From the IMG/VR virus record IMGVR_UViG_2663763428_000005: a stretch of 11,813 nucleotides of DNA; one strand, given 5' to 3'. The DNA comes from a virus (taxonomy: Duplodnaviria; Heunggongvirae; Uroviricota; Caudoviricetes). Below are positions 111 through 11,194 of this stretch, one piece after another. The translations under genes were made by a program, and so were the position numbers. Under the pieces are notes generated by a model. The model did no database searches. It was not told where the DNA came from and saw only the letters and a list, made by a program, of their open reading frames with translations. How positions within the stretch are numbered: position 1 is the first letter of the stretch; each line of letters begins with the position of its first letter.

Positions 111-1088
111 TTAATTTTCTTCAGTTTTTTTATTTTTTCTTGCAGGAAGTTTAGGCTTATATGCATTAACAAAAAGTTGATATGAATCCTGTAATGATAA
201 TCCGGGAAGGGTATCGTTTTTGGCACTAAATATTGCATAATACTTTTCGTATCGACTTATATCTTTTTCAAACACCCATGTCCATTCAGAATCATATAGT
301 CTTTCCCCTCCTTTTTCCTTATTTTTGTTCTCAACTGTACGATTAATTATAAATTTGAAAACGGTATTATTCAAAGTTCTAATAAAATTCTCAACAATAA
401 ATGCGATTTGCTCGAGATCATCATTATTGAGTATTATCGGTTTTTCTAAGTGCTTCATATGTTCAGCCAATCCTAGTCGGATTGCATTTTTCGAACCCAA
501 CTTACCAAATCGATGAACACAACAATGCCTTAACTCGCAAACTTTCATGAATTCGCTTGAGCATTTCATCATTTCGATTGGTCGTTGTCCTTTCATTCCA
601 ATAATGTCCTTTAATGTTTCAAAAACATTATAAGGGCTTGCCAATGAAAAGTCCTCAAGTAAAGCTTCTGGTAATAACTCCTTTTTATGGTGTTGTGCCG
701 CTGCATAACTAACGGCCTTATCAGAAACTATAGACTGTATATATTCATCATGATTAATTAGATTTCTGATAAGAGCTCGCAAATAACTTTCGGCTGCAGA
801 CACATAACCTAATAACAACAGATGGCTTAATGTGTTTGAAATATCACCAGATCTTAACAAGTGAAGTTGCTTTGTATTAGCTATAAAAAGATCTAACGGG
901 GATTCCTTGCTATCAACAGGTAACTCATTAAATTTTTTGTGTGTCTCAAACGAAAAAACTAGAGCTGGATTACTACATAGTTCAAAAAACTCTCTTCCAT
1001 CTAAGTTATCATGGGTTGCAGTGACAACTGAGGACGCCACATTATGATGAGTGGTCTCTTCATAATCCTCTTTTGATTCTAGTTCCAT
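111..1088 (-). CDS. Hypothetical protein, third gene of the MTase-ATPase operon; possible HEPN-like or other nuclease effector (speculative)
   Basis: Long minus-strand ORF (track 111..1214, which opens on a TTG). In-frame ATGs at 1181, 1148 and 1088; 1088 (MELESKEDYEE...) is chosen because it has a purine-rich stretch upstream and a hydrophilic N-terminus, but the start is uncertain. The ORF overlaps or abuts the upstream ATPase stop at 1159. Contains 'ELRHCCVHRFGK', which fits the HEPN Rx4-6H signature; this short motif can occur by chance. Stop TAA at 111-113. Confidence 0.55.
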   Translation of the reverse strand: MELESKEDYEETTHHNVASSVVTATHDNLDGREFFELCSNPALVFSFETHKKFNELPVDSKESPLDLFIANTKQLHLLRSGDISNTLSHLLLLGYVSAAESYLRALIRNLINHDEYIQSIVSDKAVSYAAAQHHKKELLPEALLEDFSLASPYNVFETLKDIIGMKGQRPIEMMKCSSEFMKVCELRHCCVHRFGKLGSKNAIRLGLAEHMKHLEKPIILNNDDLEQIAFIVENFIRTLNNTVFKFIINRTVENKNKEKGGERLYDSEWTWVFEKDISRYEKYYAIFSAKNDTLPGLSLQDSYQLFVNAYKPKLPARKNKKTEEN

Positions 1089-1158
1089 TTTCCCGACTCT
1101 TTTTAAATTAAACTTTTCAGATAAGAAAGACACGATTGACAAGTACATGCCATCAAAA

Positions 1159-2865
1159 TTAAGACAAAAACTCTTCAACATGTAATAACACTTTGTCCAT
1201 AATTTTATTGGCAATTTTGGGTCCTATTCTGTGAATTTTTCTTAACTCACTCCCAGGGTCTTGTAAAGACAATACATCTCCTATAGTTTTTACTTTTTCC
1301 AGCCCAGATAGTTTTTGCATTTGCCAAGATGTTAGATGTGGTACTTTTGACAGTGGAATAGACATGCACTGATTATAGGCCGACTCATCAATCAATTGAT
1401 TCCCACAATGATGGCAAAATTTTTGATTGTCAGTCAATCGCGGAGTCTTGCAGTTATTGCATGGAGGTAAAGTTAGTTTAAGTCTCGCAAGTTGCTCAGC
1501 ATTGAATAATGATGAAATGTTTCTTCTGACAGGATGCTTAGCATTCTTTCTTAGTATTTTTTGAATAATCTGAGAAGGAGAAAAACCTCTACTTCCTTCG
1601 TTAAACACTCTTTCCTTTATTAATAAAGCATAATGAGGTATATATCTTTCATAAGTACGCCCATCACCATGAGAAATATCAGGAAGATTATAAAAAAGCC
1701 CTGTTTCAATTAATAGCTTAGTGAGTCGAGAAAAATAAACATTATCATTTTTCTCTATACCGATTATGACTTGTTTCTCTTCTTTATATTGGGAGTTACT
1801 TTCCTTGAGTAATTCGACTACTTTTAATAAAAGTGATTCACCTAATGAAACAATGTCAAACAATCGAGGTAGCTTATCTTTTAGTGAACTGTATTCGCTG
1901 AGTCTAAGCTCAACATACCTTTCAATTATTTTATTAAATTTTTGCTGAGTTGTCTGACTTAAAGTTGTTTGATAATCTCTTAACATCATCAAAAAAGAAC
2001 GTGGAATACCAAATGCTGAGAATTTAAATAACTCTTTCAAGTCATCCGGAATGCCATCATACCCAGGAAACCTTGCCTGCGCTATAGCATCCATCACTGA
2101 GGAATAATTAGGGTGCTGTACCGAAATCCAAGCATCAATTGTTTCAGCATCATGAGCAACATGAAACCTTGGGCCATATTCGGTTGTTCCAGGATAAACC
2201 GATGCCTTTAAAGCTATTTTTGAGGTTTTTAGACTACGTACAATATCAAAAAACTCGTAAAGATATTCAGGAGTTAAGCTTATTGCTGCATCGTCTAATA
2301 AAATAATGACTCTTTTACGTTCAAGCCAATCACATAGTGAACTCAACGAGGATATAACAGAAGAAACACTGATCAATTGAACAATGTTTTCTTGTTCTAA
2401 TGATGGCGAAAGACCCTGCTCAAGCCTTACGATTAAATTAATTAGGAACTCTTTATCCGCTATGAGTATCGTTGACAAATCAAGATATTCAGAATCTTCA
2501 ATATCGCAAGCAATTTCATAAGCAGAGAGTAGTATCTTTGCTAATACCCATTTATGAAAGAGATCAATTGCATTTGGTTTATTTTTTAAAAGCGGCTCTA
2601 ACTTAAAATATTTATTAAAAGAAACATAGAGTGGTAATGGTGCGTTATCATCGTTTTTACATTCAACCCAAGCATAACGCATCAAATGTGTTTTACCACA
2701 TCCCCTAGGACCAACTATAAGTTTGATGCCTGGGGATATAAGAGCATTATGTATAATATCGAAAAACTCTCCAGTTCTGATAGTATTATTTTTTATCGTA
2801 TCCTCATCAATATAATCAGCTCGTTCCTCGATAAGAAAATTACTATCTAATTCCACATCAGTCAT
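1159..2865 (-). CDS. P-loop NTPase (AAA+/ORC-Cdc6-like) with C-terminal CxxC...CxxC zinc ribbon and helix-hairpin-helix-like tail
   Basis: 568-aa ORF. Walker A 'GPRGCGKTH' near the N-terminus, Walker B 'VIILLDDA', C-terminal 'CNNCKTPRLTDNQKFCHHCG' (four-Cys zinc ribbon), then a Gly-rich 'RIGPKIANKI' segment typical of HhH DNA-binding motifs. ATG at 2865 overlaps the MTase stop (2858-2860) by 8 nt, indicating translational coupling. Confidence 0.85.
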   Translation of the reverse strand: MTDVELDSNFLIEERADYIDEDTIKNNTIRTGEFFDIIHNALISPGIKLIVGPRGCGKTHLMRYAWVECKNDDNAPLPLYVSFNKYFKLEPLLKNKPNAIDLFHKWVLAKILLSAYEIACDIEDSEYLDLSTILIADKEFLINLIVRLEQGLSPSLEQENIVQLISVSSVISSLSSLCDWLERKRVIILLDDAAISLTPEYLYEFFDIVRSLKTSKIALKASVYPGTTEYGPRFHVAHDAETIDAWISVQHPNYSSVMDAIAQARFPGYDGIPDDLKELFKFSAFGIPRSFLMMLRDYQTTLSQTTQQKFNKIIERYVELRLSEYSSLKDKLPRLFDIVSLGESLLLKVVELLKESNSQYKEEKQVIIGIEKNDNVYFSRLTKLLIETGLFYNLPDISHGDGRTYERYIPHYALLIKERVFNEGSRGFSPSQIIQKILRKNAKHPVRRNISSLFNAEQLARLKLTLPPCNNCKTPRLTDNQKFCHHCGNQLIDESAYNQCMSIPLSKVPHLTSWQMQKLSGLEKVKTIGDVLSLQDPGSELRKIHRIGPKIANKIMDKVLLHVEEFLS

Positions 2866-4066
2866 GTTTAATCCTTACAAGATGTATTTTTTTTAATGCA
2901 TCCATTGTAATATGTTGTGCGGCTACACCACTACTCGCTCGAGATAATTCCTCTTGCCCATCTTGAGAACAAAGAAAATCAAATAGTTTTTTCTTATCTC
3001 CACCAGAGGCTCGTATCAGAAAAATACAGTCACTGATATAAGAATAGCCGCTCTCAACAAACAATATTTTTTTATGAAAATTTCGCCCAACTCTTGCTAT
3101 TAATATATCACCAGGCTTAGCAATGACATCTAATTTTGATGGCTTCAATTCTTCTACAGAGTTGCAGTGGAATTTAATGTACTTTTCATCACCACTAAAT
3201 TTTGTCGTATGAAAAACATGTTCCGTAATTTCCTTTGAATTAAACCTACCTCTAAAAATTGAAATATTTTTAAGCATCCCTATTGTGCTAAACCCTTTAC
3301 CTTCATTTTTATTATAATGATAAGAGTAGTCCATTCTCTCAACCGCATCTTCTTTTCTAATTAAAACAGAAGGCGACAATTCCCCATCTTTAGTTATACA
3401 ATGTAATTGTATTTTATGATGAGGCATAATTTTTTTATTAAAAATTAAAATATGTGTTTTAGCCTCTGTCCTTTTGAAGATATTCCTAGGCAATTCAATG
3501 ACTTTTGTAATTGAATGTTCATTCAATAAATATCGTCTTAAACCTATAAACTTTCTTGCTGTAAATATACCATCAGGTAAAATTATTCCAGCCTCACCGC
3601 CCTTTTTAAGAAACCTGATGACTTGAGATATAAATATTATCTCTGCTGGGACATATTTTGAGACAGATATATATTTATCTGCGCCAATCTCACTAATGAT
3701 TTTAAAATAATCATCCCTCCATTCAGGGAGAGTGAATGGAGGATTACATACTGCAACATCAAAATTTCCTTGATGTCGGGCAAGCATTTCAGGAAATGAA
3801 TGAACAAGGGCATCTGTTACAATATGAGTAAGATTATCACATACTTTTTTTGACATCCGAGATTCTATATCCAAAGAATATGCTTCTGCATTCTTCCATC
3901 GGTCTAAAGCAGCATAGGTTAAGCTCCCCTCACCAGAAGCTAAATCAATAATATTATTGACTTTTTCAGCTTTCATCTGAGAAACCAATAATGCACTTAT
4001 GGATTCTTTTGTATAGTATCTTCCGAGACTATCTCGTTGTGTGAATGGCATATAGTTACTGTTCAT
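2858..4066 (-). CDS. N6-adenine DNA methyltransferase (gamma-class, TaqI/Eco57I-like catalytic domain plus C-terminal putative target-recognition domain)
   Basis: 402-aa ORF. 'GRYYT' N-terminal motif (as in HsdM/PglX-type MTases), SAM-binding motif I 'DLASGEGS', catalytic motif IV 'NPPF' ('VAVCNPPFTLPEW') about 65 residues later. The roughly 250-aa C-terminal remainder is long enough for a target-recognition domain. First gene of a 3-gene coupled operon. Confidence 0.9.
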   Translation of the reverse strand: MNSNYMPFTQRDSLGRYYTKESISALLVSQMKAEKVNNIIDLASGEGSLTYAALDRWKNAEAYSLDIESRMSKKVCDNLTHIVTDALVHSFPEMLARHQGNFDVAVCNPPFTLPEWRDDYFKIISEIGADKYISVSKYVPAEIIFISQVIRFLKKGGEAGIILPDGIFTARKFIGLRRYLLNEHSITKVIELPRNIFKRTEAKTHILIFNKKIMPHHKIQLHCITKDGELSPSVLIRKEDAVERMDYSYHYNKNEGKGFSTIGMLKNISIFRGRFNSKEITEHVFHTTKFSGDEKYIKFHCNSVEELKPSKLDVIAKPGDILIARVGRNFHKKILFVESGYSYISDCIFLIRASGGDKKKLFDFLCSQDGQEELSRASSGVAAQHITMDALKKIHLVRIKHD

Positions 4067-4307: not shown

Positions 4308-5516
4308 CTACTTTGTAGCGTTCACCAGCAAAGAAATACATGAATTATGATTAGCGTTTATATAGTCCGCATACCACTGCATCATCTCCCTACGTCCTTC
4401 CAAATACAACGCATGGTTATACGTCCCACGAATCGCATTTTTATCAACGTGAGCCAGCTGGGTTTCAATCCACGCTGTATTGAAACCTTCCTCATGCAAA
4501 ATCGTACTCATCGTGTGACGGAAACCATGCCCCGTTACCCTCCCCGTATATCCAATCCGCTTAAAAACCTGATTAATACTCGCTTCACTCATCGTCTTGC
4601 GGGGATCATTACGTCCCGGGAACACCAGTGGATATTGCCCTGACATCACTTTGAGTTGCTGTACGATTTCCAGCGCTTGGGTAGAGAGGGGGACAAGGTG
4701 AGGCCGTTTCATCTTCATACGCTCGGCAGGTATCTCCCACACCGCTTTTTCAAGATCAAACTCACTCCAGAAAGCACCTCGGAGTTCGCCAGTGCGAACT
4801 CCCGTGAGGATCAGCAGACGTGCCGCAAGAACAACTAACGGGCTTCCTGTGTAGCCTGCGAGAGCTTTAAAAAAGTCTGGTAACTCCTCAACAGTAAGGA
4901 AGGGATAATGCTTCGATTCATGCCCTGACATCGCGCTGGTAAGATCCGCTGCAGGATTGTATTCCGCACGACCGGTTACGATGGCGTAACGAAAGACTTC
5001 GCTGCAACGCTGGCGAACCTTCTTGGCCTTCTCTGTCGCGCCACGGCTTTCAATTCGACGCAGCACATTAAGCAGAACCAGCGGTTTGATTTCATTCACC
5101 GGTTGTTGGCCAATATAGGGAAAAATATCTTTATTAAAGGCTTCGATAATGTCCGAGGCATAACCTTCTGACCATCGGCTCACCTTCGTTCCATGCCATT
5201 CAAGTGCCACAGCCTGAAACGTATTATTTAGCTGCACATCTCGAACCAGCTTTTCTTCTTTCTTGGCAAGCGATGGATCGATACCTTCGGCAAGCTTTTT
5301 CTTGGCGTCGTCACGCAGTGCCCTCGCTTGTGCAAGGGACACTGCCGGATAGACACCAAAGGCCATACGCTTCTCTTTTCCATTGAAGCGATATTTCATC
5401 CGCCAGTATCTGGAACCAGAGGGAACAACCTCAAGATACAAACCAGCACCATCTGCCAGCTTATAGGCTTTCTCTCTGGGTTTAGCTGCGTCTACCTGTC
5501 GCGCATTAAGTTTCAT
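4308..5516 (-). CDS. int: Tyrosine site-specific recombinase, P4-type (tRNA-targeting) integrase
   Basis: N-terminus 'MKLNARQVDAAKPREKAYKLADGAGLYLEV...' is the canonical P4-like integrase arm-binding region. C-terminal catalytic residues are in 'HGFRHTMST' and '...GTYNHALYLEGRREMMQWYADYI' (R...HxxR...Y). ATG at 5516 has an AGGGAG Shine-Dalgarno upstream; the ORF track extends to 5555 with alternative upstream starts. Lies 164 bp downstream of a tRNA 3'-end repeat in the same orientation. Confidence 0.92.
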   Translation of the reverse strand: MKLNARQVDAAKPREKAYKLADGAGLYLEVVPSGSRYWRMKYRFNGKEKRMAFGVYPAVSLAQARALRDDAKKKLAEGIDPSLAKKEEKLVRDVQLNNTFQAVALEWHGTKVSRWSEGYASDIIEAFNKDIFPYIGQQPVNEIKPLVLLNVLRRIESRGATEKAKKVRQRCSEVFRYAIVTGRAEYNPAADLTSAMSGHESKHYPFLTVEELPDFFKALAGYTGSPLVVLAARLLILTGVRTGELRGAFWSEFDLEKAVWEIPAERMKMKRPHLVPLSTQALEIVQQLKVMSGQYPLVFPGRNDPRKTMSEASINQVFKRIGYTGRVTGHGFRHTMSTILHEEGFNTAWIETQLAHVDKNAIRGTYNHALYLEGRREMMQWYADYINANHNSCISLLVNATK

Positions 5517-5574
5517 TGGGGGCATCTCCCTAGACCGAACACAAAATGCCCCCACTTATGCCCCCAACTGCGAC

Positions 5575-5658
5575 TTGATTTCGGTTGAGTCTAGTTGATA
5601 ACAGGAGATAAGATACGGGCCAGAAACCGCAGTATACGAGCTTTTAGTTGATTTCGGT
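5575..5658. repeat. Direct repeats between tRNA repeat and int start; putative integrase arm-type or regulatory sites
   Basis: Exact 11-mer 'TTGATTTCGGT' at 5575-5585 and 5648-5658; 'AGTTGAT' at 5593-5599 and 5646-5652. Located in the int promoter/att region. Confidence 0.4.
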
Positions 5659-5679
5659 AGACTTGGGAAGAGTTTGAAA

Positions 5680-5725
5680 TGGTGCCGATAATAGGAGTCG
5701 AACCTACGACCTTCGCATTACGAAT
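5680..5725 (-). repeat. Partial tRNA-Thr(CGU) 3' end (about 46 nt, anticodon loop to CCA); attachment-site (att) repeat, not an intact tRNA
   Basis: Reverse complement of 5680-5725 reads 'ATTCGTAATGCGAAGGTCGTAGGTTCGACTCCTATTATCGGCACCA', matching the 3' part of enterobacterial tRNA-Thr(CGU) (thrW-type) as remembered. The sequence beyond 5725 does not supply the required 5' acceptor strand 'GCCGATA' or a D-arm, so the tRNA is truncated. Confidence 0.8.
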
Positions 5726-6421
5726 TATAAGAATCCGCTTCTAATTCAAAGTATTACCCCATCAACACTGTGCTCACACGTCCCACCACATCAAAACATG
5801 TAAAGCCTTGCAAGCCATTGTGAGGCCTTATGTGTCTCAGTTTTGTCCCACCTTGTATTATGACTTGCATAGCCAATGAAGATAAACGTGACGACAAACA
5901 GCGCAGCAGTCTTCTTTTCTTTCACACTTTCCCCAATCAGCATACATACTTTCTACCATAACTGTAGTGAATGTCTGTTATGAGCGAGCAAAAGAGATTC
6001 AATTACCGGGGAATTACTCCGACATAAGCTCTCCCAGAAACACCGGAACAGCGATTCGCATATTCTCTTCTATACTTTCAGTCTGACCGGCTGGAGATTT
6101 CATAGCAAGAAAATGGATGAGCCAAGACCTATGCGGGAAAGAGGCTGAGGAAATAATTGCCGATAGCACTGTGCCCGACGAAAAGTTAATCTGGCACGCA
6201 ATGACGCGCGTCCTTGGGGCATCAGGAATCAGAGAGCCAACTTAACAACCCATTATATATTATTTAACCGGACTGTTACATGTACAAAGTTCAATGATTA
6301 GTGATTCTGTGACGCCACATACAACCTAAGCCCCTGATATAAAACCAGTCTATGCAACACCTAAAAATCATATATGATAGGGTGATAAGTCAACGCGCAG
6401 TATAAAAATTAAGCTAAAAAA

Positions 6422-6472
6422 TGCTTTCAGCATAGTGAATCTATTTCACACTACATAATTAAGGATGAAAAA
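6422..6472 (+). promoter_or_regulatory. Putative promoter/operator region of the ParA-like operon
   Basis: AT-rich leader with two small inverted repeats ('TGCT-TTC-AGCA' 6422-6432; 'GTGAA-TCTAT-TTCAC' 6435-6449), a -10-like 'CATAAT' (6454-6459) and an 'AAGGATG' Shine-Dalgarno ahead of the ATG at 6473. Confidence 0.3.
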
Positions 6473-7318
6473 ATGACTGCACCAGTAATTAGTTTTATCA
6501 ATATGAAAGGTGGGGTTGGTAAAACAACTTTATGCGTTGGGATTGCTGAGTTTTTAGCCAACCATATGGGGCGCAAGGTTCTAGTTATCGATATTGATCC
6601 TCAATTTAATGCCACTCAGTCCTTAATGGGGCATTATGATCGAGTAGAAGAATATATGACTGCCCTTCGCCCTAATAATCAAACCATTCGAAAGATTTTT
6701 GAGCTTCCAAATTCATTAATGGAAGATGAAAAGAAAGTGACACCAGAACAGGTCATTACTAAAGTTTCAGACAATCTTGATATTATCTTAGGTGATATAA
6801 ACATTATCTTTGATACTAACCAAGAGGGTATTAGAATAAAAATGTTGCGTAAATTCATCACCGAAAATGACTTAAAAGAAAGTTACGACTATATCTTTAT
6901 CGATAGCCCCCCAACAATCTCATTATTTACAGATACCGCACTCCTTGCTTCTGATTATTATCTTACTCCGGTTAAAATTGATCACTACTCGGTGCTTGGA
7001 GCAAGCAGTTTAAATAGCGTTATAAGAAATATGCGCACACATCATGAGAAAGAAATCAAGCAAGTCGGTTACATTTATACAAACACTGATGCTGAAATGA
7101 CCAATAAAACAAGGGAAATTAAAGAACAATTCGAAAACCATACTCAATTTACAAATTTTTATTTCTTTGAAAATCAATTAACCTACGTGCGTGATTTAAT
7201 GGTAGGTTATCAAGGAAATATTCCTTCTTGTTATTCAAAGTCACGCCAAGATATAGAAAAGATCTGTAACGAATTTATTAACAGAGTGGCTCACTTGGAA
7301 GGTAACACAAATGAATAA
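6473..7318 (+). CDS. ParA/MinD-family (deviant Walker A) ATPase
   Basis: 281-aa ORF. Deviant Walker A 'NMKGGVGKTT', 'VIDIDPQ' motif, Walker B-like 'IFIDSPP'. Good Shine-Dalgarno. Stop overlaps the next gene's start (ATGAATAA). Confidence 0.88.
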   Translation: MTAPVISFINMKGGVGKTTLCVGIAEFLANHMGRKVLVIDIDPQFNATQSLMGHYDRVEEYMTALRPNNQTIRKIFELPNSLMEDEKKVTPEQVITKVSDNLDIILGDINIIFDTNQEGIRIKMLRKFITENDLKESYDYIFIDSPPTISLFTDTALLASDYYLTPVKIDHYSVLGASSLNSVIRNMRTHHEKEIKQVGYIYTNTDAEMTNKTREIKEQFENHTQFTNFYFFENQLTYVRDLMVGYQGNIPSCYSKSRQDIEKICNEFINRVAHLEGNTNE

Positions 7319-7709
7319 ACAATTAATTAAAGCGCTCAATAAAGCTAATAATATGCCCATGACCAAAGAAAACTTCTTAGGCTTGGTAATTATGTTGATT
7401 CTTTCAAAAGAGGTTTTTAGATCAAATTTTGATGTTAGTAAATTTATTAACAAAACCTTCAAAATATCTTTTTTGAATTATGCTGTACGGTCAAGAACTT
7501 TGATGTGCGCTAAAATTTGCAGACATATTAATGAATTAAGTGAGAATGACATAAAGATGGCTTATACGCATTTCTTAAACAACATTAACACATTAGACAT
7601 TATTTTTAATGATGCAAATAAAACAAGCCAAAAACCCACATCTAAAAGCAAGCATGCTATAAGGAATTTAAATATTTGGATTAATGCAAATAAAAAGGAA
7701 GAAGAATAA
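7311..7709 (+). CDS. Hypothetical protein (132 aa), coupled to ParA-like ATPase
   Basis: ATG at 7311 preceded by a 'GGAAGG' Shine-Dalgarno and overlapping the ParA stop; Lys/Asn-rich basic C-terminus. No recognisable domain by eye. Its stop overlaps the next start (TAATG). Confidence 0.6.
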   Translation: MNKQLIKALNKANNMPMTKENFLGLVIMLILSKEVFRSNFDVSKFINKTFKISFLNYAVRSRTLMCAKICRHINELSENDIKMAYTHFLNNINTLDIIFNDANKTSQKPTSKSKHAIRNLNIWINANKKEEE

Positions 7710-8374
7710 TGCTCACGCAGGATCCCTTCAACATTGGAAGAGATGTAAATTATTTTAGAGCGGAGGTGCAAAAGCACCTCAGAACCACTGATGAAATAAA
7801 CAAATCAGTATCAATATTTAGGCAAATAAGTCTTTGTAATACAATTTTAAGTCACAATCCTAATCTAAATCACTCTTCTTATATAAAAGGTTTTATATAT
7901 GATACCTTAAACTCCTTAATTGCCATTATAAAAAAAAGAGAACGGTATCTCCAACTGAACTTCCGCTCAATGGTGGAGCATGTGGCCAGAATAAGCCTCA
8001 ATAAGAACTACAATGGTGGGGATTTTGACCAAACTGTACGTCGTAGAGACTTTGACTTCTTAAAAGCCCAACAAGTCGATGAAGGCTGGTCTTATTTACA
8101 TAATGTCTATATCAACGCCTGTTATTATGTTCACTCCTCCCCCCAAGCGAACCTAAATGTTACATCAACATTTATATCACTTATGGAGGGAGATTGTAAT
8201 TCAACACAGCATAAAATGGTGAAAAAACTTCATGAGGTAGTATCGGCGCTGATGAGAATCATTATAAAGTATTATCATCAGCATATCTCAAACATTTTCT
8301 TTAGAAACAAAAAGGATTTAGAGAAAATAATGGGAAAAAGCCTTTATTCATATTATACCAGCTTAGACAATTAA
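7709..8374 (+). CDS. Hypothetical protein (221 aa), third gene of the ParA-like operon
   Basis: ATG at 7709 preceded by an 'AAGGAAG' Shine-Dalgarno and overlapping the previous stop (TAATG). Contains 'NFRSMVEHVAR' (an Rx4H-type motif of unknown significance). No recognisable domain. Confidence 0.65.
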   Translation: MLTQDPFNIGRDVNYFRAEVQKHLRTTDEINKSVSIFRQISLCNTILSHNPNLNHSSYIKGFIYDTLNSLIAIIKKRERYLQLNFRSMVEHVARISLNKNYNGGDFDQTVRRRDFDFLKAQQVDEGWSYLHNVYINACYYVHSSPQANLNVTSTFISLMEGDCNSTQHKMVKKLHEVVSALMRIIIKYYHQHISNIFFRNKKDLEKIMGKSLYSYYTSLDN

Positions 8375-8439
8375 TTCTCTCATATTCATTGCGTAGAGCA
8401 TAAATATCTATCTAACCACCTAAAATGCCAGAAAATCTA

Positions 8440-9170
8440 GTTGTATACCGGTGCGAAAATATCTCGCGTTTCATCTGCCACTGCTGCTGAATGCCCTGCC
8501 CAGCGAAACAGAGTGTTTCCTTCCCGTCTTTTGCATTGAGGTGCTCCAGCACGCTCATTAACTTTTCGCTCCCAGGACCCAGCGCGTTATCGTCGAATAG
8601 GTTAGGGCATGCTCTGACTGAAGAAGTCCCCCAGCATTACCCCGGCTTTCTGATATCGGTGTCCGTCTTTCCATATTGCATCCAGACTCCCCGTTGCTAC
8701 TGCAATGATATCCCGACTGTCCTGTGTCGGGATGAGCAGCTTCACCGACGCGCTGTTACAGTAGTACGACTCGTTCAACGCAAAGGGTATCGTGTAAAAC
8801 CGATGATGACACTGCCGGCAATCAGCACTGACGTCAGCAAACGTGAGAAAGAACAGATAAGCCGAACGATTTAGGAAATGTTTGAAGAGACTGATATGTG
8901 GATGGTTTCAGTTTAAACGCCTTGAACCGTCATATTACCTAAGTACAATCCGCTGTGACTGGCAATCATTCAATACTTGCACTATCAAAAGTGCATCAGC
9001 CAACCGCAGCACGTCTTGCATACGACCTGTCTGCGGTTTCAATCACCTCTCACCACCAGTCCCATCAATAATAATTAAACAGCGCCTAAACAAAATAAAT
9101 AACAACAAGTCAACAACCTCGACAGGATGCCGATGGGATGATGAAGAGATAAGAAAGAATAACTAGTAAA
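8440..9170. other. GC-richer segment without a convincing gene; possible degraded gene remnant
   Basis: Composition differs from the flanking AT-rich genes. The plus-strand ORFs here (8491..8874, 8882..9166) have odd Cys/Ser/Pro/Arg-rich compositions. On the minus strand, a 48-codon frame runs from an internal Met to a stop near 8420 (MSVLEHLNAKDGKETLCFAGQGIQQQWQMKREIFSHRYTTRFSGILGG); an upstream stop was not located. Confidence 0.25.
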
Positions 9171-9304
9171 GCCCTAAAACGTCAGCGTTCAGACGCGTTT
9201 TTTACTTAACCGGTAACAAATACGTTGTATCATAGCAACATAAAATGATTGTTCTAAATCAGATTAACTCCTCACTTTTGTACAATGTCGCTTACAGGTA
9301 TACC

Positions 9305-11194
9305 ATGAAATCCGAGACGCTAACTGTCCAACAACTTTTTCAAGACCGCCGACAATACTGTGTTCCATTCTATCAACGTGCCTATGTATGGACTCAGCGA
9401 AACCAATGGTCAGCTCTACTGGAGGATATCCTAGAGAAAGCACAATCCCGGCTCTCGGGTACAAAACCAACTCCCCATTTCCTTGGTGCAGTGGTACTGG
9501 AACCTCAACCAAAAAAAGGATTATTCGGTGTAGATTCCATACATATTATTGATGGTCAGCAACGATTGACCACTCTTCAATATGTTCTGGCATCCATCCG
9601 ATTAGCATTACGTGCGACAGATCTTTCCAACTTAGAGCCTCTCATTTCGTCTTGCCTGAAAAACTCAAACGAAGACACAATGCGAAATAAAGAAGTAGAG
9701 CGCTTCAAACTGTGGCCAACTTTTCGGGATCAAACTCATTTTATTCAAAGTTTTAATGTTGAAAATATTGACGATATCCGGAATGTATTCTCTGATAGTT
9801 TCACGCAGCATGGTACGTTGCGTAAGCATTTTAATCACCCGCCATCACTAGAAGCATTATGTTTTTTTACTGAAGCCTTTATAAAGTGGATTAAAATAGA
9901 AAATCACTCACCACGAGAAAATGCTGTAGCATTAATTGAGGCTGTCTTGACGGATCTGAAACTAGTAAGCATATTTCTCGAGGCTGAAGATGACGCTCAA
10001 ATAATTTTTGAAACATTAAATGGCAGAGGTGCGGAACTTCATGCCACAGATCTTATTCGCAATTATATTTTTATGTGCGCTGAACATGAAAATATTAATG
10101 CTGTTGAATTATATGAGAATGAGTGGAAGATCTTTGAAGATACGTACTGGTCAGAAAGACAACGTCGTGGTCGTATTAATAAACCACGCATGGAGTGGCT
10201 AGTGCATGCAACATTGCAATCAGAAAGGCAACGTGAAATCGATCTGTCTCGTCTTTACAATGAGTATCGTGATTATGTAAGTAAGGACTTGCCTTCACAA
10301 CGAGCAGATCTGCAAGTAAAGCGCCTCAAACAATATGCATCACAATATAAAGAATTGGTTGGTGGTTTTGGCACAACCCCCATCTCACACTTTGGACATC
10401 GCATCGCAGCCTATGATGTGACGACACTTTATCCGCTTGCTTTGTTCATTTCGATAGCTAACATCGCCGATGATGAGAAAGCAGCCATGTATAATGATCT
10501 TGTCTCCTACGTAGTACGAAGAGCCGTATGTGGCCTGACGCCAAAGAATTACAACAATGTATTTATGAATGTATTGCGGCACTTGTCTAAAACAGAAATT
10601 TCCAGTGTTGAGTTACGTAATATCCTCAATAGCTTAAATGGCGAAGCCTCACGTTGGCCTGGGGACTCAGAATTTCTCAACGCTTGCATCAATGCTCCAC
10701 TTTATCCTGGCAGGCTCGACGCACCGAAAATGCGCTCAATGTTAACGGAACTTGAAAGAGAACTTTGTCGCCAAGTGAAGACAGAGAAGCCTGATGTTCC
10801 AAATCTTTCTAACCTCGATATCGATCATCTTATGCCTCAAAGTTGGTATTCCTGTTGGCCTCTCGAAAATGGTCATATAGTGACAAATTCAGATGCTACG
10901 GTATTGAACCAAATTGTTCTGTCTGGAACCGATCTTACCCCAGAACAGCTACTGGTAAGGAAACGGCAACAAGCGATAGCTACGTTGGGAAATCTAACTT
11001 TGCTTAACCTTAGCGTAAACCGTTCTGTTCAGAATGCTGTATTTCTGAAAAAACGTGATGCTCTCATCGTCCACACCAATCTACGACTGAACATTCCACT
11101 TATAGTTAAGGATAAATGGGATGAGGATGAAATCCTGGAGCGGGGTAAAAAGTTGGGGGAAATTGCATTGAAAGTATGGCCAAAACACGATTAA
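9305..11194 (+). CDS. GmrSD-like DUF262/DUF1524 protein; putative type IV (modification-dependent) restriction endonuclease or related defence nuclease
   Basis: N-terminal DUF262/ParB-like signatures 'VPFYQRAYVW' and 'IIDGQQRLTTL'. C-terminal DUF1524/His-Me-finger-like 'DIDHLMPQSW' and 'GNLTLLNLSVN'. Start uncertain: ATG at 9245 (longest ORF, no Shine-Dalgarno) or ATG at 9305 (AGG about 9 nt upstream, motif spacing typical for the family). Confidence 0.85.
   Translation: MKSETLTVQQLFQDRRQYCVPFYQRAYVWTQRNQWSALLEDILEKAQSRLSGTKPTPHFLGAVVLEPQPKKGLFGVDSIHIIDGQQRLTTLQYVLASIRLALRATDLSNLEPLISSCLKNSNEDTMRNKEVERFKLWPTFRDQTHFIQSFNVENIDDIRNVFSDSFTQHGTLRKHFNHPPSLEALCFFTEAFIKWIKIENHSPRENAVALIEAVLTDLKLVSIFLEAEDDAQIIFETLNGRGAELHATDLIRNYIFMCAEHENINAVELYENEWKIFEDTYWSERQRRGRINKPRMEWLVHATLQSERQREIDLSRLYNEYRDYVSKDLPSQRADLQVKRLKQYASQYKELVGGFGTTPISHFGHRIAAYDVTTLYPLALFISIANIADDEKAAMYNDLVSYVVRRAVCGLTPKNYNNVFMNVLRHLSKTEISSVELRNILNSLNGEASRWPGDSEFLNACINAPLYPGRLDAPKMRSMLTELERELCRQVKTEKPDVPNLSNLDIDHLMPQSWYSCWPLENGHIVTNSDATVLNQIVLSGTDLTPEQLLVRKRQQAIATLGNLTLLNLSVNRSVQNAVFLKKRDALIVHTNLRLNIPLIVKDKWDEDEILERGKKLGEIALKVWPKHD

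Follow-up and report, generated by a model that had tools for sequence, protein, structure and literature searches.

An Escherichia coli prophage operon that is probably a diverged homologue of Salmonella RemAIN

RemAIN and the window operon

Sargen & Helaine, writing in Cell Host Microbe in 2024, reportedly characterised RemAIN as a phage defence system of the Salmonella prophage Gifsy-1. Here we analyse a three-gene operon at positions 6473–8374 of an 11,813-nucleotide stretch of viral DNA (Caudoviricetes; IMG/VR record IMGVR_UViG_2663763428_000005), the whole of which we call the window. We conclude that this operon is very probably a diverged homologue of RemAIN borne by an Escherichia coli prophage.

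In Salmonella Typhimurium 14028s, activation of the RNA-repair regulator RtcR in the SOS response requires the genes STM14_3218–3220, which encode a ParA-like ATPase without a ParB and two hypothetical proteins and lie in the Gifsy-1 immunity region (PMC9879122). These genes have been named RemAIN, for the RemA ATPase, the RemI immunity protein and the RemN HEPN nuclease, in a paper whose remarks on the system ascribe to it an anticodon nuclease activity and cite Sargen & Helaine 2024 (PMC13043305). RemAIN blocks both co-resident prophages and incoming phages (PMC12724215). Pairs of ParA/Soj and HEPN genes were also predicted to be toxin–antitoxin systems by Anantharaman et al. 2013 (PMC3710099).

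The window operon comprises three overlapping open reading frames (ORFs) on the plus strand. The remA-like gene (6473..7318) encodes a 281-aa ATPase of the ParA/Soj superfamily, the remI-like gene (7311..7709) a 132-aa all-α protein that we presume to be the immunity or neutralising subunit, and the remN-like gene (7709..8374) a 221-aa all-α protein of predicted HEPN fold, the presumed anticodon nuclease effector. The first two genes share an 8-nt overlap (ATGAATAA) and the second and third a 1-nt overlap (TAATG), and a Shine–Dalgarno sequence of the AAGGA or GAAGG type sits 8–9 nt before every start.

All three proteins are homologous to those of a Salmonella locus (L006) in which the genes stand in the same order, also with overlapping or abutting frames, and are of similar size (279, 128 and 220 aa). 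The ATPases are 65% identical over 275 aa (E = 1e-141), the middle proteins 33% identical over 129 aa (E = 4e-22) and the last proteins 49% identical (E = 6e-88). The two middle proteins also have a Y-x2-RSRT motif and a C-terminal tryptophan in common. L006 was assigned to Gifsy-1 of strain 14028s indirectly, through its gene order, an alignment with pSLT ParA and the serovars represented. Its order (a 210-aa hypothetical protein, eaa-like, P, O, cII-like, cro-like, cI-type repressor, ATPase, 128 aa, 220 aa) is that of the published map of STM14_3211–3220 (PMC9879122), and its ATPase aligns with the 401-aa pSLT ParA with 58/216 identities (27%), the figures printed for STM14_3218 in the same paper. 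Members of the L006 cluster come from serovars Typhimurium, Newport and Anatum, in agreement with that publication. The window copy and RemAIN thus share a ParA-like ATPase, a last gene of HEPN fold with an R-x4-H motif, and a prophage location. They differ in that the window copy belongs to a diverged subfamily in E. coli whose immunity protein shares a third of its residues with RemI, and in that it is placed next to an attachment (att) site of a lambdoid prophage, beside a GmrSD enzyme, and not downstream of a repressor. A megablast search with the Salmonella-type operon DNA gave no match in E. coli genomes.

The ATPase matches the Pfam families PF13614 (AAA_31; E = 8e-38) and PF01656 (E = 7e-17) and the PHROG family phrog_164 (E = 2e-57), and its best solved relatives in a PDB sequence search are Soj and ParA (E = 1.5e-18); it scores under all NCBIfam equivalog cut-offs. 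It contains a deviant Walker A motif (NMKGGVGKTT, with K12 and K17), a DxDPQxN motif and a Walker B aspartate (D144). The Walker A residues (K12 and K17; KGGVGKT), DxDPQxN and D144 are invariant in 10 homologues with identities down to 43%.

The 221-aa protein is predicted by structure modelling to have a HEPN fold, with an all-α, up–down helical core. Its fourth helix carries an Rx4H motif (R86-S-M-V-E-H91) that is invariant among 31 homologues, and across 88 distant relatives R86, E90, Y134 and H142 are invariant. HEPN Pfam models match neither the protein (E ≤ 0.1) nor the 88 relatives (E ≤ 0.01). The 132-aa protein has an invariant Y-x2-RSRT-x3-A motif, a disordered linker (residues 98–113) and a basic C-terminal helix; its model is all-α without a strand, and none of its fold matches is DNA-binding. 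Profile searches of the PDB with both small-protein families returned no solved relative.

A sequence-only reading of the window had described three coupled genes with overlaps and good Shine–Dalgarno sequences, the first of them a deviant-Walker-A ParA-like ATPase, and both descriptions are borne out, the latter by the PF13614 match, the Soj/ParA relatives and the NMKGGVGKTT motif. Its view that neither small protein has a recognisable domain stands as far as Pfam and NCBIfam go, neither of which has a family for the 132-aa or the 221-aa protein. It fails in that both have counterparts among PHROG families of unknown function, phrog_6264 (E = 3.5e-25) and phrog_7540 (E = 6e-77), and that the 221-aa protein has a HEPN fold by structure prediction. 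Two of the checks it proposed yielded little: Foldseek comparison of the 221-aa model against the PDB was uninformative, and PADLOC 2.0.0 did not detect the trio, giving P-loop-level or chance matches only. Among these, PDC-M28B (40 residues of Walker A), TRIP13 and PD-T4-2_B (132-aa protein, E = 0.004) were rejected as not meaningful. The same reading put the system forward as a candidate undescribed one, a claim that gives way to the homology, in the same gene order, with RemAIN and to the 2013 prediction of ParA/Soj–HEPN pairs (PMC3710099).

The trio can also be set beside other described systems. HepS (STM14_3211 of Gifsy-1) and Tha are likewise prophage-encoded HEPN RNases that act as abortive-infection effectors, and HepS is an anticodon nuclease on the same prophage as RemAIN; however, HepS acts alone, triggered by the tail-tip protein J and independently of RemAIN (PMC13043305), whereas the nuclease of the window system is always accompanied by an ATPase and a small partner, and may depend on them. 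The MAE_18760 dyads similarly combine a ParA/Soj ATPase with a HEPN gene in one operon, with a proposed role in conflict and not in partition (PMC3710099). The window trio differs from them in always having a conserved small gene between ATPase and nuclease, and membership of the MAE_18760 group is not supported because the nuclease and its 88 relatives all lack a match to a HEPN Pfam model.

Linkage, distribution and prophage setting

Homologues of the 221-aa protein occur in Escherichia, Klebsiella, Enterobacter, Citrobacter, Salmonella, Yersinia, Serratia, Brenneria, Dickeya, Pantoea and Proteus. We fetched 35 related loci. The trio is present in the same order in all 34 that have enough upstream sequence, the remaining one (L019) ending at a contig end, and such an arrangement of the same genes is far beyond chance. 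Across the 35 loci, identity to the window proteins is 57–100% for the ATPase, 30–99% for the middle protein and 38–100% for the last protein, and the overlapping or abutting starts are conserved.

Relatives of the last protein numbered 102 in a profile search of 1.84 billion representatives, and most were 195–305 aa long. We sampled five distant relatives, about 17–27% identical to the 221-aa protein. A homologue of the middle protein precedes the last gene in all five, as far as the contigs reach, and ATPase homologues (41–45% identity) precede in the four whose contigs extend far enough. One of these distant trios belongs to a prophage and is flanked by XhlA/Amidase_2 lysis genes on one side and an integrase on the other.

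Within E. coli, 52 of 5426 complete genomes carry the 2.15-kb segment that holds the trio, and with it the 750-bp leader, at an identity of at least 99%. A second variant of the trio (283, 137 and 221 aa) is carried by 16 further complete genomes, bringing the total to 68 of 5426 (~1%), and 67 of these 68 copies are chromosomal. In NCBI annotation the first gene product is a 'ParA family protein', and each of the others a 'hypothetical protein'. Given these labels and the failure of PADLOC 2.0.0 to detect the trio, about 1% of complete E. coli genomes (the two variants combined) therefore carry an unrecognised RemAIN-type system. The trio is also present on 27 IMG/VR viral contigs; a scan of species-representative genomes found a single locus, and a tblastn search of INPHARED phages with the 221-aa protein gave no match.

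The ParA-like gene or the surrounding segment is broken by the insertion sequences (IS) IS1 or IS3 in the E. coli records NZ_OZ501671.1 and NZ_CP049081.1 and in a Dickeya locus (L002, 8003–9620). Such interruption could stem from a fitness cost, or could be no more than decay.

In most loci with enough flanking sequence the trio occupies an accessory-gene position of a prophage. In 12 Salmonella-type loci it is directly downstream of a cI-type repressor. The rexAB genes of phage lambda likewise lie directly downstream of the cI repressor; rexA–rexB have no sequence or fold relationship to the trio, and the window copy is in another accessory locus. In nine loci (L011, L013, L028 and L030–L035), and also in L036 and L037, the trio follows a lambda-type integrase, as it would in a circular phage genome. 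The window copy and L014 have it beside a P4-type integrase at a tRNA-derived att core. The region downstream of the repressor and the b-region are typical sites of prophage accessory and defence genes.

The second E. coli variant follows the integrase of a yfdPQR-type prophage. One record with this variant (L037; NZ_CP148393.1, 44.6 kb), deposited as a plasmid, is evidently the circular genome of a lambdoid phage of the yfdPQR type in which the trio sits between the integrase and DinI/tail-fibre genes, and the same element is integrated in O103:H2 chromosomes.

The window contains no complete tRNA gene; of tRNA-Thr it has the 3′ end, in a 46-nt copy (5680..5725, minus strand) that matches annotated tRNA-Thr genes in E. 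coli genomes at 100%. Rightwards from this copy six E. coli loci are near-identical; to its left they diverge, with an integrase of P4 type or lambda type in some and chromosomal genes in others. From this we infer that the 46-nt fragment is the att core and marks the outer prophage boundary, and that a lambdoid prophage carries the operon as its outermost cargo, at a position that would correspond to the b-region in the circular phage map. The core appears to serve tandemly integrated elements: it separates an island with a P4-type integrase from the end of the lambdoid prophage. The annotated counterpart of the window, which also contains IS elements, is placed at the tail-fibre end of a lambdoid prophage; downstream of the trio it has, in this order, fragments of UmuC and DinI, the GmrSD enzyme, part of a recombinase, genes for tail fibres and lambdoid tail genes.

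Alternative explanations and proposed function

A ParA-like ATPase followed by a small gene invites the view that the operon is a type Ib-like partition cassette, in which ParA would work with the 132-aa protein, as centromere-binding adaptor, and with an accessory protein to segregate the phage in an episomal form. The first gene product does belong to the ParA/Soj ATPase family, with Soj and plasmid ParA as its nearest relatives of solved structure, and small adaptors other than ParB do serve type Ib systems. ParF–ParG of TP228 and delta–omega resemble the window in pairing a small ParA that lacks an N-terminal DNA-binding domain with a small partner gene, and one of the 68 E. coli copies is on a 44.6-kb circular record labelled plasmid. 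That record was rejected as a sign of plasmid partition, being the circular genome of a phage and carrying integrase and tail genes. Of the four defining features of a partition cassette, the ParA ATPase is present, whereas the centromere-binding partner, the centromere repeat array and the plasmid or episome location are missing. Neither small protein fits a centromere-binding type (ParB helix-turn-helix or ParG/omega ribbon-helix-helix) by Pfam, NCBIfam or fold; there is no tandem array or multi-copy repeat in 5500–9300, and the repeats in 5700–8500 are short two-copy matches at chance level. The window also has no plasmid replicon and carries an extra gene, for the nuclease. Partition is thus hardly credible as an explanation. 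The sequence-only reading had noted the absence of a ParB-like partner and of obvious centromere repeats, as the family and repeat searches confirm, and its proposed search for parS-like iterated repeats found no array. Comparative genomics, also among its proposals, shows a conserved three-gene linkage, mostly in prophage accessory-gene positions. Together with the HEPN fold and the homology to RemAIN, these results support its choice of a defence or addiction role over partition.

We regard it as unlikely that the trio is solely an addiction module, in which the ATPase would act as antitoxin, without any sensing of phages, and cells losing the prophage or island would be killed. Such a module has a precedent in the predicted toxin–antitoxin nature of ParA/Soj–HEPN dyads (PMC3710099); the nuclease gene is preceded by that of a small 'immunity' protein, as in toxin–antitoxin architecture, and a place beside att sites and integrases would suit the stabilisation of an element. 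However, RemAIN, the Salmonella homologue, restricts both incoming phages and co-resident prophages, a trio whose ATPase is strictly conserved goes beyond what simple neutralisation would call for, and no HEPN Pfam family, the MAE type included, matches by sequence. Addiction and defence are not mutually exclusive. It is more doubtful still that the window copy is an inactive, unexpressed remnant in a decaying, IS-ridden prophage end. Its surroundings are indeed degraded (fragments of UmuC, DinI and a recombinase, and IS elements in the annotated counterpart), no outstanding promoter was found, and some genomes have IS1 or IS3 inserted in the ATPase gene. Against this, none of the three ORFs is disrupted and their starts are coupled, the catalytic residues are retained, and the 2.15-kb segment and its leader are at least 99% identical in 52 complete genomes.

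Several observations weigh against the identification with RemAIN. The middle protein is only 33% identical to RemI. The window copy lies outside the immunity region and no promoter stands out; some copies of the trio are broken by IS elements; and the canonical HEPN histidine, H91 of the Rx4H motif, is an asparagine in 67 of the 88 distant relatives. The mechanism of RemAIN is given here as later papers summarise it. In strain LT2, remAIN showed no activity against phage FO1 in one study, suggesting that its effect depends on the host.

By homology with the published Salmonella system, the E. coli trio would be expected to cleave tRNA anticodons and to protect its host from phages and co-resident prophages; the activity of the E. 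coli copy is thus a prediction. In a resting lysogen the three proteins would form one unit, in which the RemI-like protein and the RemA-like ATPase would hold the RemN-like nuclease inactive. Lytic development of an incoming phage, or of an induced co-resident prophage, would release the nuclease, and we assume that the ATPase is the subunit that senses the phage. Once released, the nuclease would cut tRNA anticodon loops by a metal-independent HEPN mechanism, and the resulting stop in translation would block late gene expression and lysis by the competitor.

Some further possibilities are tentative. The RemN family may lack a textbook HEPN site: replacement of H91 by asparagine, with H142 invariant, hints at a non-canonical or second catalytic histidine. 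The E. coli variant may respond to another trigger or act on other tRNAs, as the low identity of its RemI-like protein and its different prophage locus might suggest. The trio reaches well beyond the Enterobacterales and could therefore constitute a broad, largely uncatalogued defence family.

The main value of the finding is for annotation, in that recognition of the locus avoids its misreading as partition machinery. It also provides a second, diverged and genetically tractable member for the study of how a ParA-like ATPase controls a HEPN tRNA nuclease. By itself it opens no new question.

Leader and neighbouring genes

Between the att core and the remA-like gene is a conserved non-coding leader (5726..6472, plus strand) that is near-identical in the six E. 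coli loci and presumably holds the promoter and the phage-side att arm. It contains no convincing ORF, only short ones (≤51 aa), and promoter-like matches are no commoner in it than in shuffled sequence, with none outstanding. No Rfam family matched anywhere in the window, the leader included.

The operon has a GC content of 0.29–0.36, compared with 0.44–0.51 for the integrase and upstream regions. Its setting was correctly read from the DNA as an AT-rich island adjoining a GmrSD-like nuclease and an integrase-borne R-M-like operon. The nuclease is a full-length GmrSD type IV restriction enzyme (9245..11194, plus strand; PF03235 and PF07510; PADLOC mREase_IV, 1436 bits), and a GmrSD enzyme accompanies the trio in the E. 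coli viral contigs L010, L011, L013 and L014. Between the trio and this gene, at about 8412–8880, are pieces of a UmuC C-terminal domain (DUF4113, minus strand) and of DinI, annotated in an identical E. coli record; a 127-aa plus-strand ORF that overlaps them (8491..8874) is probably spurious.

On the other side, the P4-type integrase (4308..5555) is directly followed by a separate three-gene operon on the minus strand (111–4066), whose junctions overlap. One gene (2858..4066) encodes an HsdM-like N6-adenine methyltransferase that matches PADLOC MTase_II at 784 bits, and another (1159..2865) an AAA ATPase of the ORC/CDC6 type whose C-terminal part is a zinc ribbon. The third (111..1214) encodes a protein of 367 aa without a family that has a faint match to RTasHEPN (E = 0.005). 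This operon looks like another defence candidate. In three Yersinia enterocolitica loci (L003–L005; 10942–19263) the trio adjoins a gene for a 2773-aa polymorphic-toxin-type protein (LPD5, LPD1, MuF_C and LPD38), and a deaminase-C/DUF6911 pair lies upstream.

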